A stretch of DNA of 64,000 nucleotides from an uncultured Candidatus Saccharibacteria bacterium (GTDB taxonomy: Bacteria; Patescibacteriota; Minisyncoccia; UBA6257; 2-01-FULL-56-20), in assembly GCA_964361095.1 (NCBI GenBank), contig CAYHZA010000007.1, positions 3,010-67,009 on the forward strand. The letters run 5' to 3'. A program made the translations under genes and the position numbers. Under the pieces are notes generated by a model that was not told the DNA's origin, did no database searches, and saw only the letters and a program-made list of their open reading frames with translations. Below are positions 2,962 through 16,739 of this stretch, piece by piece. Position 1 is the first letter of the stretch; each line of letters opens with the position of its first letter.

Positions 2962-3276
2962 ATGACGATGCTACAACCCAACAAAGAAAAACGTTTTATC
3001 GGAATATATATCGCGCTATTTCTCACGCCGCTTTTGAGCGGCGCGTTGTGGCTCGTGTTTCTTTATAATCAAACGGTGAATCTCCAGCACGCGCTCGAGA
3101 AGACACAGGCCGATTTCCTTGCTCTTCAGACGGGAAACGCGGAGCTCCGAGACGAGTTTTTCACACTTTTTGACGGGAAAAACCTAGAGATTTTTGCGAA
3201 AGAGCGGGAATTACGGGAAGAAAAGAACCCTCGTTATTTGGAAATTAAAGGACCATGGGCACTCGTTTCACGGTAA
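2962..3276 (+). CDS. ftsL: FtsL-like cell division protein (single TM, coiled coil)
   Basis: Small bitopic protein between rsmH and ftsI; N-terminal TM helix then heptad-like region. Confidence 0.5.
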   Translation: MTMLQPNKEKRFIGIYIALFLTPLLSGALWLVFLYNQTVNLQHALEKTQADFLALQTGNAELRDEFFTLFDGKNLEIFAKERELREEKNPRYLEIKGPWALVSR

Positions 3277-9383: not shown

Positions 9384-9423
9384 TTGCTTAGCTTGTAGAG
9401 ATGGGAAACATTGTTGGGTATCG

Positions 9424-9447
9424 AATACTAGTATTAATACTAGTATT
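9424..9447. promoter_or_regulatory. two tandem copies of the self-complementary 12-mer AATACTAGTATT, then a T-run, upstream of the tpiA promoter
   Basis: AATACTAGTATTAATACTAGTATT followed by TTTTTT; extended -10 TGcTACAAT at 9469-9477. Confidence 0.5.
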
Positions 9448-9484
9448 TTTTTTGTCTCGCATTCGTCGTGCTACAATAGATGAT

Positions 9485-10213
9485 ATGAACAAACTTCTTG
9501 TCGCAAATTGGAAGATGAACCCGACAACCGCTCGCGAGGCCATCAAACTTGCCAAAGCAAGTAATCATAAAAACGTGGTTATCTGTCCGCCATTTCCGTT
9601 TTTGAATGCAGTCAAAAAAAACATAACTGCCGCTTCGCTTGGAGCGCAAGATGTATTTTGGGAGAGTCCGCCAGCTGGCGGAGGCGCCTATACCGGAGAG
9701 GTATCGCCCGCGATGTTGAAGAACGCCGGCGCGCGATATGTGATTATCGGGCATTCCGAACGGCGTCGTTACGTGGGCGAGACGGATGGAATGATAAACA
9801 AAAAAGTTCTCGCCACGCTTTTTGCGGGCCTTAAGGTAATCCTTTGCGTCGGCGAGCCGAAAGCGGTTCGCAAAAATGGACTTGCCGCCGCGAAGGCTTT
9901 TGTGAAAAAACAACTTTTGGCAGATACTCGCGGCGCGCATGGAAAACTTATCGTGGCGTACGAACCCGTGTGGGCTATCGGAAGCGGTACTCCCGACGAT
10001 CCGAAAGATACGGCGGAGATGGCGCGTTTTATCCGCAATCTTCTCAAGTCTTCAAAAATAGACGTCGTGGTGATCTACGGGGGTTCGGTAACATCTAAGA
10101 ACATCGGACGTATTATGAGCTATGGGGAGATAGGCGGTGCCTTGGTCGGTGGCGCCAGTTTGCATTCCCATGAGTTCAAAACAATGATACAAATCGTGTC
10201 GCATAAAAAATAA
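9485..10213 (+). CDS. tpiA: triosephosphate isomerase
   Basis: LVANWKMN start, AYEPVWAIGSG active-site loop, VIYGGSV; ATG lies 7 nt after TACAAT, so the mRNA is probably leaderless. Confidence 0.9.
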   Translation: MNKLLVANWKMNPTTAREAIKLAKASNHKNVVICPPFPFLNAVKKNITAASLGAQDVFWESPPAGGGAYTGEVSPAMLKNAGARYVIIGHSERRRYVGETDGMINKKVLATLFAGLKVILCVGEPKAVRKNGLAAAKAFVKKQLLADTRGAHGKLIVAYEPVWAIGSGTPDDPKDTAEMARFIRNLLKSSKIDVVVIYGGSVTSKNIGRIMSYGEIGGALVGGASLHSHEFKTMIQIVSHKK

Positions 10214-10232: not shown

Positions 10233-10997
10233 ATGGATACCAATAAATTAAAAACCTATTTTTGGGGTGTGCTGGACTTGGTCCTCGCGGCTTTTTTTAT
10301 CAATCTCGTTTTCTTCGTGATGCCGACGGTGCAAAAACTTGGCGATTCATTCCAACCCGTGCGCACCATAAGCGTTTCGGCGGAGGGGAAGGCTTTTGTC
10401 ATACCGGATATCGCGGAGACTTCCTTTTCGGTTGTTTCGCGCGGACAGGACCCTGCCCAGTTGGCGGATATGAACAACAAAAAGATTACGTCGGCCATTA
10501 ATTTCGTGAAATCCCAAGGGATTGACGCGAAAGACATAAAAACTGCCGGTTATTATCTCTCGCCCGACTACCAATATACGCCGGAGACCCAGCGGAGCAT
10601 TATTACGGGCTATACCCTGACGCAGACCGTCTCGGTCCGCATACATGATTTCTCTAAAATAGCAGCTATCCTCGGCGGTCTTCCTCCGCTTGGGATTAAC
10701 CAGATTGGAGGCCTCAACTTTACCGTTGATGAACCCGAAAAGTTTTTGGCAGAAGCCCGGGCTGATGCTTTTAAAAAAGCCCGTGCCAAAGCGATATCTC
10801 TGGTCGCGCAGAACGGAGTTCGGCTTGGAAAAGTAATCAATATCGGCGAATCGCAAGGCGGGGGACCGATGCCTTATTACGCGAAGAGTCTTGACGGACG
10901 CGGCGGTGCCGCTGCTCCGGAAATCGCTCTTCCGACCATCGAACCCGGCCAGCAGGAGCTGAATCTCCAGGTTTCGGTAACGTACGCGATAGAATAG
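10233..10997 (+). CDS. SIMPL domain protein (DUF541, BP26/OMP28-like)
   Basis: N-terminal TM/signal; length and pattern (LNFTVDEPEK..., AKA..., final LQVSVTYAIE) typical of the SIMPL family. Confidence 0.6.
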   Translation: MDTNKLKTYFWGVLDLVLAAFFINLVFFVMPTVQKLGDSFQPVRTISVSAEGKAFVIPDIAETSFSVVSRGQDPAQLADMNNKKITSAINFVKSQGIDAKDIKTAGYYLSPDYQYTPETQRSIITGYTLTQTVSVRIHDFSKIAAILGGLPPLGINQIGGLNFTVDEPEKFLAEARADAFKKARAKAISLVAQNGVRLGKVINIGESQGGGPMPYYAKSLDGRGGAAAPEIALPTIEPGQQELNLQVSVTYAIE

Positions 10998-11044
10998 GTG
11001 TCGATTCCGGCCGCGTTAGAAGCTAATTTTTTTGGGGGGGCTTG

Positions 11045-11193
11045 CCCCGTAACATTACTGGGGTTCGCCTCATTCAACCTGTCGATGCAAGCCAATGTAA
11101 ACCACGCTATTTTTCCTTATGCGTCTAGTGGCAATAAAACAAAGGAACATATTGAACGAGGCGGCAGGTTGACGCCCCAGTAATGTTACGGGG
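11045..11193. repeat. 19-bp inverted repeats CCCCGTAACATTACTGGGG / CCCCAGTAATGTTACGGGG flanking about 110 bp
   Basis: Exact reverse complements at 11045-11063 and 11175-11193; the right arm abuts TTGACT. Confidence 0.7.
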
Positions 11194-11223
11194 TTGACTT
11201 TTTCCTCTTACTTCTGCTATACT
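11194..11223 (+). promoter_or_regulatory. sigma-70-like promoter TTGACT-N18-TGcTATACT
   Basis: -35 TTGACT 11194-11199; extended -10 TGcTATACT 11215-11223. Confidence 0.5.
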
Positions 11224-11229
11224 ACTCCC

Positions 11230-11326
11230 GAATGAGTGTGAATAGTCTTTAGAGATTGCATCAATAAAGACTGTCCCATACTTCCTGTTTGTCCCAACCC
11301 CCGCTTCGGCGGGGTTTTGGGTTTTT
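11230..11326 (+). ncRNA. candidate small RNA of about 95 nt with an internal hairpin and an intrinsic terminator
   Basis: Predicted TSS about 11230 from the promoter above; hairpin agtcttta...taaagact; terminator ccccgcttcggcgggg + TTTTGGGTTTTT; no ORF. Confidence 0.35.
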
Positions 11327-11348
11327 AGGGGAGTCGCCTCTATCTTTT

Positions 11349-11377
11349 TTGGCAAAAACCCCGTATCCATTTATAAT
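11349..11377 (+). promoter_or_regulatory. near-consensus sigma-70 promoter TTGGCA-N17-TATAAT
   Basis: -35 at 11349-11354, perfect -10 TATAAT at 11372-11377; transcription runs into the repeat region towards murB. Confidence 0.55.
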
Positions 11378-11396
11378 GTTGATACGTTCGGCACAT

Positions 11397-11866
11397 GTCC
11401 ATTTTGGTGGCCGTGAGGAGAGCACTTGTTGGTACATTCATAAAAGTCCATATTAGTGGTCACAGGGAGAGCACTCATTAACAAGGGTTCATCGTGGTGG
11501 TTGTGAGGAGAGCACTCATTCAAAACAAACAGAATTGGAGGTCACCACTCGTAACCACCACGATGGATCGATGGAAAACAGAATTGTTCCCGATTTGTCC
11601 CCGATCCGTCAGTTGACGGAGAGGGGATACAAATTGTCATGCCTACGGCAGATCTTCCGAAGGGATGACAATCCCGCATACACTGAGCTTGTCGAAGTGC
11701 TCTGCGGGAGAGGTCACCACCTGTGACCACTAATATGGATTAATGAAGAACAGAACTGTTCCTCAACCGTCCCGCTACGGCGGGACGAACGGGATCGCAC
11801 AAATCTAACCTCAAGCTTCGCTTCTCGGAGATTTGAGTGAGACGTCACTCCTCACGGCCACCAAAG
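11397..11866 (+). repeat. three tandem roughly 34-nt units (core GTGAGGAGAGCACT) followed by their inverted partners in nested order
   Basis: Units at 11397-11430, 11446-11479, 11487-11520; reverse-complement partners at 11553-11565, 11720-11739, 11848-11864; extra local hairpins. Confidence 0.6.
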
Positions 11867-11896
11867 CGGATCGTAGTACGCAATCTATTTTTCAGA

Positions 11897-12817
11897 ATGC
11901 CCACACTTGAAGAAAATGTTTCTCTTGCAAAATTAAGCAGTTATAACATCGGCGGACCCGCACGCTATTTTTTTGAAGCATCTACAAAAAAAGATCTTCT
12001 CGAAATATTTAAGGAATGGAACGGAAAATTTTTTGTGCTTGGCGGCGGAACGAATCTTTTAATTAGTGATGCCGGTTTTGACGGATTGGTACTTAAACCG
12101 AAGTTTAATTTTTTAGAACGTGACGGAACGGATGTTTATGTCGGCGCGGCGGTTCTGATGTCCGACCTTTTGAACTTTACGATTAAAGAAAATTTGAGCG
12201 GATTGGAGTGGGCGGGCGGATTGCCCGGGACTTTGGGCGGAGCGATTCGCGGGAACGCGGGATGTTTCGGCGGCGAGATGAAAGATTCCATCCGTCGAGT
12301 TTTTGGTTTTGATAAGACGACTCTCAAAGACACCGAACGCGAAAACGTGGAGTGCCGTTTCGCGTATCGCTCGAGTATTTTTAAAGAACGGCAGGGAGAC
12401 GAGATTGTCGTCGCGGCAACACTCGCGCTTCAAAAGGGAGAGTCGGAAAAAATCAACGCGTCGATTAACGAGAAAATTAACTATCGCAAAGAACGCCATC
12501 CGATGGAGTATCCGAATATCGGAAGCATTTTTAAAAATGTTCCCGTTGCGTCTTTCCCCGCGTCCGAGCTTCATCGTGTCGCTCAGGTGATAAAAAATGA
12601 TCCGTTTCCGGTAATTCCCGCCGCGTATCTGATATCGGAGGCGGGAATTAAGGGAACACGTCACGGCGGCGCGATGATCTCGCCGAAACATCCGAACTTT
12701 ATTGTGAATGTCGGAGACGCGCGCGCTTCCGATGTGCACGCGTTGATCGATCTCGTGAAGCATGCGATCAAAAAAGAATTCAATGTTGAACTTCAAGAAG
12801 AAATTCAAGCCGTATAA
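11897..12817 (+). CDS. murB: UDP-N-acetylenolpyruvoylglucosamine reductase MurB
   Basis: FAD-binding N-terminus ...LSSYNIGGPARYFF..., GGGTNLL; start placed at MPTLEEN (ATG 11897) rather than the upstream alternative start. Confidence 0.85.
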   Translation: MPTLEENVSLAKLSSYNIGGPARYFFEASTKKDLLEIFKEWNGKFFVLGGGTNLLISDAGFDGLVLKPKFNFLERDGTDVYVGAAVLMSDLLNFTIKENLSGLEWAGGLPGTLGGAIRGNAGCFGGEMKDSIRRVFGFDKTTLKDTERENVECRFAYRSSIFKERQGDEIVVAATLALQKGESEKINASINEKINYRKERHPMEYPNIGSIFKNVPVASFPASELHRVAQVIKNDPFPVIPAAYLISEAGIKGTRHGGAMISPKHPNFIVNVGDARASDVHALIDLVKHAIKKEFNVELQEEIQAV

Positions 12818-13146: not shown

Positions 13147-13223
13147 TTGTCCTCTTTTTTAGATATTTTTCGTAAAAAATTTATCCCTATTATTGAACGT
13201 ATGACGCTATCATGGCGGGGTTT

Positions 13224-13254
13224 ACCCTGTTAGAGACAATACCTCTAACAGGGT
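13224..13254. promoter_or_regulatory. palindromic element ACCCTGTTAGAG-N7-CTCTAACAGGGT abutting TTTACA, upstream of hpf
   Basis: Perfect 12-bp arms; TTTACA at 13255-13260. Confidence 0.6.
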
Positions 13255-13298
13255 TTACAGGAGTGTGTATTTTCGGTTATGCTCTAAGAGATAGAGAA

Positions 13299-13637
13299 AT
13301 GCAGACCAACGTTAAAACAACAAATCTTGACCTTACGCCGAGTCTCTCGGTCTATATCGAGAAGAAATTAGGGACTCTCGCCCGATATATAAAGAAGTTT
13401 GACGAAGAGGGTGTGGCGGAGCTTTGGGTTGAAGTAGGAAGAACTTCTCGGCACCACCACAAAGGAGAGGTGTTTCGCGCCGAAGCTAATCTGCGTTTGC
13501 CGAAGAAGATACTGCGCGCCGTGGAGGAAAACACAGATGTGCATGCCGCTATTGATCTCGTCCGAGACAAACTTCATATGGAAATAGAAAAGTACAAAGC
13601 GCGTTTAAGTCCTCGGTCAAAGCGCGTGAAGGAATAA
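13299..13637 (+). CDS. hpf: ribosome hibernation promoting factor / RaiA
   Basis: MQTNVKTTNLDLTPSL...; about 110 aa sigma-54-modulation/RaiA fold pattern. Confidence 0.85.
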   Translation: MQTNVKTTNLDLTPSLSVYIEKKLGTLARYIKKFDEEGVAELWVEVGRTSRHHHKGEVFRAEANLRLPKKILRAVEENTDVHAAIDLVRDKLHMEIEKYKARLSPRSKRVKE

Positions 13638-13706: not shown

Positions 13707-16700
13707 ATGTTTGATTTTTTGAAGAAAATTTCCGGCGGCCGATCGGTCGCGCGCTATAACGAACGCGCGCGCGAGATTAACGCGCTTGAACCCGAAGTCA
13801 AAAAATTTACCGATGAGGAGTTGCGCGCGGCGAGTCTCGCCTTTAAAGAACATATTCAAAGTAAAGAAAAAACAATCGATGATATTCTTCCGAACGCGTT
13901 CGCGTTCGCGCGTGAGGCGGCGAGGAGAACACTAGGACAGCGCCCTTTCGATGTTCAGCTTGTGGGTGGTATGGTGCTCCATGACGGCGCCGTTTCAGAG
14001 ATGATGACCGGAGAAGGAAAGACATTGACCGCGGTACTCCCCGCGTATTTGAACGCGCTCACGGGAGAGGGAGTGCATGTGGTAACCGTGAATGAATATT
14101 TGGCGCGACGCGATGTCGCGTGGATGGGACAAATTTATCGCGCGCTCGGACTTTCGGTCGCGTGTTTGGTTCCGAACGCCGCGTATCTTTATGACCCCAC
14201 TTACGTGCGCGGACCTCGCGGACAGGACGCAGACCTCGCCGAAGAGAAACTACTTCACGAAGATCTAACTTATAGGATTAGAGGCATACTTTTCTCCATC
14301 AAAAACGTTCTTGGTTTGGGGCACAAAGAGAACATTTATCAAAAAGCCATTGAAAGCGAATTATTGAAGGCAGAAATTGTATTTGAACGAGAAAAAGCGA
14401 TAGATGTGCTATATGATGGTAAAAAAATAGGAACTTACCAACCGGATTTTGTGATAGATGGAAAGGTTATTTTGGAGATAAAAGCCGTGCCATTTATAGG
14501 TAAGATAGAAGAAAAGCAGGTTTGGTCGTATTTAAAAGGATCGCCTTATAGGCTTGCGCTCTTGGCAAATTTTGGGGGTAAGGATATTGAGATTAAAAGG
14601 ATTGTTTATGATACGGCGCGTGATAATGGTCCGCGTGAGTCTGCGTCCAGTCAGCGCGAGTCAGCGTTGCTGGATAAGGAACGGGATAGCACCGGAAATT
14701 TTTTGGTTCAACAGGAATTTCTTCGTCCTGTTTCTCGGCGCGAAGCGTATCTCGCCGATATTACGTATGGCACGAATCATGAGTTCGGTTTTGATTATTT
14801 AAGGGATAATTTGGCATATGGCCTGACCGATCAGGTTCAACGCGGCCATCACTACGGCATTATCGATGAAGTTGACAGTATTTTAATCGACGAAGCGCGA
14901 ACGCCTTTGATTATCGCTGCTCCCGACGCGCAATCGAGCGAATACTACAAAACCTTTGCCCGCGTCGTTACGCATCTTAAAAAAGACGAGGATTACACGG
15001 TTGATGAGAAATTGCGGTCGTCGGCGATTACGGAGGCCGGTATTGAAAAGGTGGAAAAAGTCGTGGGAATCCATAATCTATACGCGCCCGAAAATATGCG
15101 CCTCGTGCATTACCTCGAAGAAAGTCTGCGGGCAATGGCGCTTTTCCATCGCGATAAAGATTATGTCGTAAAAGACGGGGAAGTCATTATTGTCGATGAA
15201 TTTACGGGGCGCATGCTCCATGGACGGCGGTATAACGCCGGTTTGCATCAGGCGATCGAGGCGAAAGAAGGAGTGCTCGTAAAAGAGGAGTCCCGTACGT
15301 ACGCGAAGATTTCCATTCAGAATTACTTCCGGATGTATAAGAAAATTGCGGGAATGACGGGAACAGCCCAAACGTCCGCCGAAGAGTTTCACAAGGTATA
15401 TAGCTTGGAAGTGGTGAGCGTTCCAACGAATCAGCCGATGGCGCGGAAAAATCTTCCCGATTTTATCTTCCGGAATAAAGAGGCGAAATTAAGATCGGTA
15501 GTCGCGGAGGTGAAACAGCGTTTCGAGAAAGGTCAGCCGATCCTCTTGGGAACTCCATCCATAGAAAAAAACGATTTTCTCTCGGCGCATCTTACGCGCG
15601 CCGGAATTCCGCACGAGGTTTTGAACGCGAAGAATAACGAACGCGAGGGAGCGATCGTCGCGCAGGCGGGAAGACTTAAGGCGGTTACGGTGGCGACGAA
15701 CGTCGCCGGCCGTGGCGTGGATATTATTTTGGGCGGCAACCCCTTAAATCCCGAGGAGGCAAAAAAAGTGCGGGATCTCGGCGGGTTGCACGTAATTGGC
15801 ACGGAGCGAAACGAAGCGCGGCGGATAGACAACCAGTTCCGCGGCCGCGCGGGGCGTCAGGGCGATCCCGGTTCTTCGCAGTTTCTTCTCTCGCTCGATG
15901 ACGATCTCCTTCGGATTTTTGGCGGCGATCGCATTAAAAGTTTAATGGAACGGTTTGATCTTCCCGAGGATCAGCCGATAGAGATGGGAATTGTTTCCAA
16001 GGCGGTGGAGCAAGCGCAAGCGAAAGTGGAAGGCGCGAACTTTGATATGCGGAAACACCTTCTTGAATATGATGACGTGTTAAACAAACAGCGCGCGTCC
16101 ATTTACCGCAAGCGACAAGAAATTCTTCAAAGCATGAACCGCGATACGTTGGCGCTTATTATTTTCGAGGCGGCGAGCGGTTATTTCGACGGCGTGGCGC
16201 AGAAGCTTTTCGGCGACGAGGAAACGTTTACGGGAGAAAATACGGACGAGCTTAAAAAGCTGTTTGAAGAATCCGTAATCGCGACTAAGGAACAGCCGTT
16301 GCCCAAAGAGCCGACCCGCGAAAGTATCCGTGAACTTCTTACGAAGCGAAGCGTTGAAGTGACGGTTGATCCGCAGACGTTGAACAGGGTATTGAGCATT
16401 CTTGATTTGCTTTGGATGACGCATCTTGAAGACTTGGAGGCGCTTTCCGAATCAATCGGTCTTCGCGCGTATGGCCAACGGGATCCGCTTGTCGAGTACC
16501 GGCGCGAGGCGCACAACTTGTTCAAAAATTTTTGGGGCAATTTTAACACGTGGATATTCACGAATTTATTTAAACTGGCGAGTTTGCAGGCGGCCTCCGG
16601 TGTGGCAACGGCGAATCCTTCACCGCGTCCGGCGATGGTAGTGGCGGGAAATCAACCAAGTTCCGGAAAAACAGTAGGCAGAAATGATCCGTGCCCGTGC

Positions 16701-16739
16701 GGTTCAGGAAAAAAGTATAAAAAATGTCATGGTAGTTAA
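13707..16739 (+). CDS. secA: preprotein translocase ATPase SecA carrying a large NBD1 insertion
   Basis: Walker A MTGEGKTLTA, ADITYGTNHEFGFDYLRDN, DEVDSILIDEARTPLII, C-terminal zinc finger CPCGSGKKYKKCHG; 1010 aa. Confidence 0.9.
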   Translation: MFDFLKKISGGRSVARYNERAREINALEPEVKKFTDEELRAASLAFKEHIQSKEKTIDDILPNAFAFAREAARRTLGQRPFDVQLVGGMVLHDGAVSEMMTGEGKTLTAVLPAYLNALTGEGVHVVTVNEYLARRDVAWMGQIYRALGLSVACLVPNAAYLYDPTYVRGPRGQDADLAEEKLLHEDLTYRIRGILFSIKNVLGLGHKENIYQKAIESELLKAEIVFEREKAIDVLYDGKKIGTYQPDFVIDGKVILEIKAVPFIGKIEEKQVWSYLKGSPYRLALLANFGGKDIEIKRIVYDTARDNGPRESASSQRESALLDKERDSTGNFLVQQEFLRPVSRREAYLADITYGTNHEFGFDYLRDNLAYGLTDQVQRGHHYGIIDEVDSILIDEARTPLIIAAPDAQSSEYYKTFARVVTHLKKDEDYTVDEKLRSSAITEAGIEKVEKVVGIHNLYAPENMRLVHYLEESLRAMALFHRDKDYVVKDGEVIIVDEFTGRMLHGRRYNAGLHQAIEAKEGVLVKEESRTYAKISIQNYFRMYKKIAGMTGTAQTSAEEFHKVYSLEVVSVPTNQPMARKNLPDFIFRNKEAKLRSVVAEVKQRFEKGQPILLGTPSIEKNDFLSAHLTRAGIPHEVLNAKNNEREGAIVAQAGRLKAVTVATNVAGRGVDIILGGNPLNPEEAKKVRDLGGLHVIGTERNEARRIDNQFRGRAGRQGDPGSSQFLLSLDDDLLRIFGGDRIKSLMERFDLPEDQPIEMGIVSKAVEQAQAKVEGANFDMRKHLLEYDDVLNKQRASIYRKRQEILQSMNRDTLALIIFEAASGYFDGVAQKLFGDEETFTGENTDELKKLFEESVIATKEQPLPKEPTRESIRELLTKRSVEVTVDPQTLNRVLSILDLLWMTHLEDLEALSESIGLRAYGQRDPLVEYRREAHNLFKNFWGNFNTWIFTNLFKLASLQAASGVATANPSPRPAMVVAGNQPSSGKTVGRNDPCPCGSGKKYKKCHGS
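14262..14610 (+). other. in-frame AT-rich insertion in secA encoding a GxxExxY-family (PD-(D/E)xK-like) domain
   Basis: Sharp GC drop against flanking secA sequence; encoded LGHKENIYQKAIESEL...DFVIDGKVILEIKAV...LLANFGG matches the GxxExxY small-protein family end to end. Confidence 0.6.

Follow-up and report, generated by a model that had tools for sequence, protein, structure and literature searches.

Gene order and repeats upstream of murB

We analysed a 64-kb window of DNA (64,000 nt; positions 3,010 to 67,009 of contig CAYHZA010000007.1, assembly GCA_964361095.1) from an uncultured Candidatus Saccharibacteria bacterium, in which a structured RNA built of three repeated modules lies 5' of the cell-wall synthesis gene murB, accompanied by the gene of a small RNA (sRNA) complementary to it. 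The sequence belongs to a metagenome-assembled Patescibacteria contig recovered from Hainich groundwater (ena:ERZ1292643). All coordinates are those of the window. Upstream of murB the gene order is TIM then SIMPL/DUF541, after which 900 nt are free of genes, and murB heads a cluster with hpf and secA downstream of the modular RNA:

9401-10213, TIM gene
10233-10997, SIMPL/DUF541 gene
11349-11377, + strand, promoter of the modular RNA (TTGGCA-N17-TATAAT, 11 of 12 positions match)
11397-11870, + strand, three-module structured RNA, 5' leader of murB (from its fold at z = -12.5, its repeats and its family membership)
11897-12817, + strand, murB (306 amino acids, ATG at 11897)
13212-13637, hpf (S30AE hibernation factor)
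13707-16739, secA

A first-pass annotation, made from the sequence alone, had described a near-consensus promoter firing into three tandem units upstream of murB, with inverted partners nested in inverted order, and each of these elements was recovered. The direct units are 30 nt long (11397-11426, 11446-11475 and 11487-11516; 77-83% mutual identity) and all three close with the decamer GGAGAGCACT, which occurs exactly three times in 64 kb, always at this locus; the full GTGAGGAGAGCACT is present in units A and C only, unit B carrying ACAGGGAGAGCACT. The inverted partners are longer than annotated: 11398-11420 pairs with 11848-11870 (helix A, 23 nt, 91% complementary), 11447-11466 with 11720-11739 (helix B, 20 nt, 100%) and 11490-11507 with 11548-11565 (helix C, 18 nt, 89%), both mismatches in helix C being G.U pairs on the + strand only. 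The minimum free energy fold of 11380-11900 contains exactly these three concentric helices (-232 kcal/mol, z = -12.5, none of 100 shuffles as good), as had been predicted, and two of the three local hairpins proposed with them, ccgtcagttgacgg and cccgctacggcggg, whilst the third, ggtcaccacctgtgacc, is absent from the fold and competes with helix B. The reverse strand of the repeat region folds equally well, so folding alone is no guide to the strand. The structure ends at 11870, 27 nt 5' of the murB ATG, close to the 30 nt given before, and no open reading frame longer than 63 amino acids lies within it. Its separation from clustered regularly interspaced short palindromic repeats (CRISPR) also stands: the units are spaced 49 and 41 nt apart, their identity is 77-83%, each has its own nested partner and the neighbouring genes encode no cas domains.

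A conserved family of modules

An exact-pattern scan covering one genome per species returned 55 loci, of which around 50 lie in Patescibacteria metagenome-assembled genomes (MAGs), at about one locus per genome, whilst the other five are chance matches in unrelated bacteria. The MAGs carry the labels Liptonbacteria, Harrisonbacteria, Paceibacterota, Minisyncoccia and Parcubacteria, and some the generic label "Saccharibacteria". The nearest relatives of the window's murB are only ~60% identical to it, yet they share the gene order and the non-coding stretch 5' of murB, and in these stretches a common core is closed by a helix of wholly different sequence, in one copy at locus L004 and in two nested copies at L006. 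The core GAGCACUCAUUCAnnACAAACAGAAUUGGAGGUCACCAC is nearly invariant across the ~50 Patescibacteria genomes and the flanking helix, P1, is freely variable. Each module is thus a nearly invariant loop of ~40 nt, GAG-CACUCAUUC-AnnA-CAAACAGAAUUG-GAGGUCACCAC, closed by P1, and the repeats of the window are copies of this one module, which the first-pass annotation had missed.

P1 is maintained by covariation. In 49 modules aligned to a covariance model (R2), 91.9% of cells pair against 67.1% in shuffles, both sides have changed in 17 of the 18 P1 pairs, and the score for covariation reaches 0.679, whereas shuffles give 0.199 (0 of 500), with slid registers, used as a control, all at or below 0.15. 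This covariation, together with the conservation in ~50 genomes, bears out the earlier suggestion of a large structured leader or non-coding RNA (ncRNA) transcribed from the + strand.

Genomes carry one, two or three modules, mostly nested. Where modules are nested, the inner one interrupts the outer between CAUUCAnnA and ACAGAAUUG, and extra hairpins fall between GAAUUG and GAGGUCACCAC; the window has the identical layout in both respects. In L035 and L050 the modules are serial, or mixed serial and nested, and module duplication therefore arose in more than one way. In one MAG, REEB161, the module is present on two contigs (L015 and L025), in one case 5' of hpf and in the other 2.4 kb from murB; either the genome has two loci or the bin is mixed.

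No known family accounts for the module. An Rfam search had been recommended, and no Rfam 15 family, raiA included, matched: scans at the gathering threshold of the window and 18 related loci, and at E ≤ 10 of the interval 10900-12000 and the long-form RNA of L026, gave nothing but tRNAs and sub-threshold chance matches such as mir-622 and the rnk leader. Literature searches for Patescibacteria ncRNAs or sRNAs at murB returned nothing relevant in the collections searched.

A partner small RNA

An sRNA gene lies upstream of the leader promoter, outside the coordinates covered by the first-pass annotation, and comprises the following features:

11194-11223, + strand, sRNA promoter (TTGACT-N18-TATACT with TG before the -10 box, 10 of 12 positions match)
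11230-11326, + strand, partner sRNA of ~95 nt (match to covariance model R1 at 11230-11319, 71.5 bits, E 2e-15, and fold)
11230-11239, + strand, seed 1, GAAUGAGUGU
11242-11274, + strand, hairpin HP1
11284-11291, + strand, seed 2, CCUGUUUG
11293-11326, + strand, intrinsic terminator (stem 11299-11314)

One more terminator-like hairpin, TAGGGGAGTCGCCTCTA with a T-run after it, separates the sRNA terminator from the leader promoter (11326-11342), and this T-run overlaps the promoter's -35 box TTGGCA.

The layout is conserved in relatives, where a near-consensus promoter is followed by GAAUGAGUG and a hairpin, then by a C-rich linker with CUGUUUG(G) at its end, and finally by a strong terminator, with the promoters at other loci standing 5-9 nt 5' of GAAUGAGUG. 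The R1 model, built from 31 sRNA copies, finds the sRNA in 45 of 51 sources. A metagenome scan with the sRNA pattern recovered 13 real copies, and in all 12 with enough flanking sequence a module lies 100-450 nt downstream. The gene has its own predicted promoter and intrinsic terminator, as a trans-encoded sRNA unit should, and at two loci (L044, 982-1249, and L032, 2262-3122) it is divergent, on the strand opposite to the modular RNA; it is therefore an independent unit that must act in trans. A small open reading frame was considered, as AUG AGU follows the sRNA 5' end, and was rejected because the stop positions are not conserved. Scans for other sRNA targets revealed none in the 64-kb window, although the scans were uninformative.

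Complementarity and co-variation of the two RNAs

Every module contains two segments to which the two single-stranded segments of the sRNA are complementary. The sRNA 5' end, GAAUGAGUG, is the reverse complement of the core segment CACUCAUUC (helix H1), and the linker (CAAUU)CUGUUUG is the reverse complement of the core segment CAAACAG(AAUUG) (helix H2). H1 is 94% paired in a fixed-column alignment. Wherever only one side of it has changed, the substitution is A-to-G in the sRNA opposite U, yielding a G.U pair, whilst position 1 shows a change from G-C to A-U. Tolerance of G.U pairs in this orientation shows that both partners are RNAs read from the strands given here. In H2, seed 2 of the sRNA changes together with its site in the core:

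sRNA CUUUUUG with core CAAAAAG, L010 group
sRNA AUGUUUG with core CAAACAU, L027 and L031
sRNA CUAUUUG with core CAAAUAG, L025 and L035 (both modules of L035 match their own sRNA)
sRNA CCAAACUAUUUA with core UAAAUAGUUUGG, L044
sRNA CCAAAUUAUUUA with core UAAAUAAUUUGG, L032
sRNA GCUUUUGUG with core CACAAAAGC, L037
sRNA CUAUAUGUU with core AACAUAUAG, L039
sRNA UCUUCUGUG with core CACAGAAGA, L018

Compensatory change between seed and target, as expected of a trans-encoded sRNA, is therefore present in several lineages, and the two loci with an inverted sRNA gene, L044 and L032, have matching, multiply substituted variants in seed 2 and core. Duplexes of seed 2 with the core average -14.9 kcal/mol for cognate and -11.2 kcal/mol for non-cognate pairs (permutation, 0 of 5000), and in every lineage with a variant seed its own core ranks best or nearly best.

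One further resemblance was set aside. The core sequence CAAACAGAAUUGGAGGUCACC (11526-11546) resembles GCAAACAGGAUUAGAUACC, the universal helix 24 segment of 16S ribosomal RNA in its Escherichia coli form; we judge the resemblance incidental, since the seed varies freely with the module in L044, L032, L037 and L057, which is incompatible with a universal ribosomal RNA target.

In the window the three modules are nested, C inside B inside A, with module C sitting between the two sRNA sites of module B:

11486-11569, + strand, module C, innermost and canonical (R2 covariance model match, 90.8 bits, E 4e-23)
11490-11507 and 11548-11565, + strand, module C P1 arms
11510-11548, + strand, module C core
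11513-11521, + strand, module C sRNA site 1, CACUCAUUC
11526-11537, + strand, module C sRNA site 2, CAAACAGAAUUG
11537-11548, + strand, module C 3' junction, GGAGGUCACCAC
11446-11740, + strand, module B, from repeat analysis (P1 arms 11447-11466 and 11720-11739)
11469-11479, + strand, module B, GAGCACUCAUU
11576-11586, + strand, module B, AAACAGAAUUG
11598-11627 and 11633-11672, + strand, module B accessory hairpins
11710-11720, + strand, module B 3' junction, GAGGUCACCAC
11397-11870, + strand, module A, outermost and most degenerate (P1 arms 11398-11420 and 11848-11870)
11420-11430, + strand, module A, GAGCACUUGUU (by manual alignment, seed 1 could pair here through two G.U pairs)
11749-11758, + strand, module A, AACAGAACUG
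11768-11787 and 11795-11840, + strand, module A accessory hairpins
11839-11848, + strand, module A 3' junction, GAGACGUCAC

Predicted sRNA duplexes weaken from the inner to the outer module, with seed 1 and seed 2 at -15.4 and -12.6 kcal/mol in module C, -11.9 and -6.2 kcal/mol in module B, and -9.6 and -6.5 kcal/mol in module A, where the best seed 1 site found by RNAduplex is the nearby CAUUCAU (~11434-11440) and not GAGCACUUGUU.

The repeats might instead be a DNA-level element, that is nested insertions of miniature inverted-repeat transposable elements (MITEs), an iteron or operator array, or recombination sites. Hairpin self-insertion could produce nested inverted repeats with tandem left arms, and the number of modules does differ between genomes, but we consider any such origin very improbable: there is one syntenic locus per genome without dispersed copies, the motifs occurring in 64 kb only here, the arms differ completely between species yet stay complementary, the G.U pairs of module C and H1 form on the + strand only, promoters flank the element, an RNA partner acts in trans, and no transposase or recombinase gene lies nearby. 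The iteron-like protein-binding array, which the first-pass annotation had kept as an option, is not supported, given the same unconserved but complementary arms and strand-specific G.U pairs as well as a conserved loop that pairs with an RNA partner, and the neighbours (TIM, SIMPL, MurB, S30AE and SecA) include no linked gene for a binding protein. We regard it as highly probable that 11397-11870, with its cognate sRNA, is a three-module member of a previously undescribed family of Patescibacteria structured RNAs with trans pairing.

A proposed intermolecular four-way junction

From these complementarities, the two RNAs would form an intermolecular four-way junction. The sRNA 5' segment would pair with the 5' segment of the loop (H1) and the sRNA 3' segment with the 3' segment of the loop (H2), giving four arms: P1 (module with module), H1 (module with sRNA), HP1 (sRNA with sRNA) and H2 (sRNA with module). 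The invariant purine-rich strands GAGAG and GAGGUCACCA would be left unpaired at the junction. In the free RNAs the sites are partly masked, CUC-AUUC by GAAU-GAG in the module and GUGYG by CACAC in the sRNA, and for this reason we propose that docking would start from single-stranded toeholds and proceed by strand exchange.

A different use of the same architecture, which we think rather unlikely, is that the two RNAs are subunits of a stand-alone four-way-junction holo-RNA, in which the unpaired GAGAG, GGAGGUCACCA and sRNA UCCCAC make up a pocket that serves a ligand, a protein or catalysis. Such a holo-RNA would be the equivalent, in Patescibacteria, of orphan ncRNAs found beside hpf and secA, such as raiA, and its multi-module forms would scaffold several sRNAs.

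Position of the RNA relative to murB and its possible regulatory role

At nearly all loci the core lies 60-380 nt 5' of murB on the same strand, and where murB is missing it lies 5' of hpf (L025 and L029, directly) or of secA (L057). Automatic chaining of nested stems to place the outermost P1 proved noisy and unreliable, so individual folds, read by eye, were relied on. In many genomes P1 ends ~15 nt or less from the AUG, leaving no room for a promoter, whilst in single-module relatives a -10 box, also placed by eye, stands 5-9 nt before the first base of P1; the RNA is therefore physically the 5' leader of the operon in most genomes. In L037 and L044 only U5-6 separates P1 from the AUG. In about ten genomes a copy of the P1 5' strand recurs downstream, and the 3' strand of P1 is complementary to this copy as well, which allows a longer, competing hairpin.

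Since the RNA is physically the leader of murB(-hpf-secA), sRNA docking would most likely be the signal that sets expression of the operon. Docking may stabilise P1 against the downstream hairpin that competes for its 3' strand, or may alter access to a start codon only a few nucleotides after P1, such that P1 stability, set by the sRNA, would control either read-through or start-codon access; several modules could then provide multivalent or cooperative sensing. As the window has no competing hairpin, the effect there would fall on start-codon access, on processing or on titration of the sRNA. Shine-Dalgarno-like motifs precede almost none of the 32 gene starts listed for the window (at most one or two weak GGA-containing stretches), so structure near the AUG may matter more in this genome. 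The best explanation overall, and one that we favour by a small measure, is that of a repeatable-module RNA which docks a dedicated sRNA, most likely as an sRNA-sensing leader of murB. Regulation of murB in cis, taken as a separate claim, we put forward tentatively, the arguments for and against it lying close to balance.

The GGAGG of the module was considered as a Shine-Dalgarno sequence and ruled out because the genes of this genome show no such motifs. The module conserves GGAGGU despite the Shine-Dalgarno-poor window, and L058 does use a Shine-Dalgarno sequence (AAAGGAGAAAGACGATG).

Several observations weigh against an sRNA-sensing leader. The window and many relatives lack the competing hairpin, and in the genomes that have it no canonical U-tract comes next. 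The module of L058 is a full unit with its own promoter and a terminator formed by P1 and a U-tract, and the next gene has its own promoter, whilst the module of L042 has no co-directional gene downstream at all; both stand-alone copies keep a perfect core and sRNA, and with such copies in at least two genomes the RNA must keep a function independent of murB. Simple sensing of an sRNA explains neither the strict conservation of the unpaired GAGAG and GGAGGUCACCAC nor why the long forms have such elaborate accessory domains. When folded together by RNAcofold, the sRNA and module C form zero intermolecular pairs, although the program cannot represent docking into a closed loop, and it is for this reason that duplex energies were used above.

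The stand-alone copies are one reason to consider that the RNA acts in trans, as a stand-alone bipartite ncRNA or ribonucleoprotein or as a multivalent sRNA sponge, its position at murB reflecting only synteny or promoter sharing. The promoter of relatives is placed for transcription to start at the first base of P1, a U-tract follows P1 in L024, L032, L037, L044 and L058, the invariant unpaired junction nucleotides and the complex accessory domains of long forms would suit such a role, and the neighbourhood, 5' of hpf/raiA and near secA, is that of the raiA motif RNA. We regard this account as a serious rival, though rather unlikely, as the RNA abuts the murB start codon in most genomes without space for a separate promoter, the competing hairpin of about ten genomes is typical of an expression platform, the window offers no further evident sRNA target (subject to the weakness of those scans) and the RNA has no known protein partner. 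A function in trans may also coexist with the leader function.

A leader of the riboswitch kind, sensing a metabolite or protein with the loop as its aptamer and with the sRNA complementarity incidental or secondary, fits the highly conserved loop and covarying P1 closure, the variable number of aptamer-like units known from riboswitch families, and the competing hairpin seen in some genomes, and its conserved GGA-containing junctions could be a protein site. It is improbable in our view: the two most conserved loop segments are exactly those complementary to the sRNA and co-vary with it across genomes, and the sRNA gene is physically linked to the module in essentially every locus.

Comparison with known RNA systems

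The closest functional analogue of an sRNA-sensing leader is the T-box riboswitch, likewise a structured 5' leader: it recognises a second RNA by base-pairing at two separate places, occurs in tandem copies, opposes a helix to a competing downstream hairpin and regulates in cis. The likeness is one of function only: here the ligand is a dedicated sRNA and not a tRNA, the modules can nest, the contacts are helices of 9-12 bp that would form a four-way junction, there is no Rfam T-box match (RF00230), and the + strand has no Stem I, specifier or T-box sequence. In plasmid antisense systems, such as the CopA-CopT four-way junction of R1 and the countertranscript-driven attenuation of pT181 and pIP501, a small RNA also docks on a leader loop, a four-helix junction forms by strand exchange and alternative leader structures decide the outcome. 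Those antisense RNAs are cis-encoded, fully complementary and serve plasmid replication, whereas the sRNA described here is encoded in trans, either on the strand of the module or divergently, makes contact through two short seeds, and is a chromosomal RNA whose conservation extends across a class-level clade. Known sRNA sponges, among them the chbBC spacer that traps ChiX, SroC that traps GcvB and the 3'ETS of leuZ, resemble the module as mRNA-linked RNA segments with sites that titrate a specific sRNA, but they are unstructured single sites, unlike the module, which is conserved and structured, is closed by a covarying helix and occurs in one to three copies, and for whose sRNA no other target is known.

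The raiA motif RNA (RF03072) shares with the module a place 5' of a hibernation-factor gene and near secA, a neighbourhood that is not specific, and an architecture in which P1 closes a highly conserved core and the peripheral stems vary. It was taken initially for a cis leader of raiA, until it proved to be an abundant ncRNA in its own right; a bipartite or sponge function of the modular RNA would follow this precedent. Its defining features are a P3a/P3b kink with an A-rich internal loop, P4, the pseudoknots PK1 and PK2, an UUAGACGUAA linker and GU/GGU bulges in P1 (PMC12968392), and none of these is present in the module or sRNA consensus. The RF03072 covariance model has no match at the gathering score in the window and 18 related loci, nor at E ≤ 10 in 10900-12000 and L026, and the raiA RNA is a single RNA found in Bacillota and Actinomycetota. 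Homology to raiA was thus rejected despite the shared context, and the RNA pair is not a member of the T-box, plasmid antisense, sponge or raiA families, which are its closest analogues.

Patescibacteria (Candidate Phyla Radiation) have tiny genomes, and to our knowledge almost nothing is known of RNA-based regulation in them. Here a co-evolving RNA pair, one member being a repeatable structured receptor for the other, stands at the head of genes that serve cell-wall synthesis (murB), the hibernation of ribosomes (hpf) and secretion (secA). Should it act as a leader, it would be the first RNA-sensing leader outside the T-box family known to us, with a dedicated sRNA as its ligand, and would show how module copy number (one to three, nested or serial) evolves; should it stand alone, it would join the few widespread orphan ncRNAs of bacteria as a bipartite member. 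Under both readings it offers precise, testable sequences in its two seeds, two sites and natural compensatory variants.

Other features of the locus

Downstream of the SIMPL stop codon and ahead of the sRNA promoter lies an element of ~150 nt (11045-11193) with perfect 19-nt inverted repeats (CCCCGTAACATTACTGGGG) at its ends. It has one copy in the window, folds at z = -4.4, was not seen in L004 or L006, and contains GCCUCAUUCAAC, which resembles GCACUCAUUCAAC of the module; among its possible identities are a degenerate extra module, a MITE and an elaborate terminator. In the downstream secA gene, the window's SecA carries a PD-(D/E)XK nuclease-family domain (PF13366, residues 186-299, E 1e-28; ~14262-14603) inserted in the DEAD motor domain. 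The SecA proteins of relatives are without this PF13366 insert, and their tblastn alignments break at query residues 166-320.

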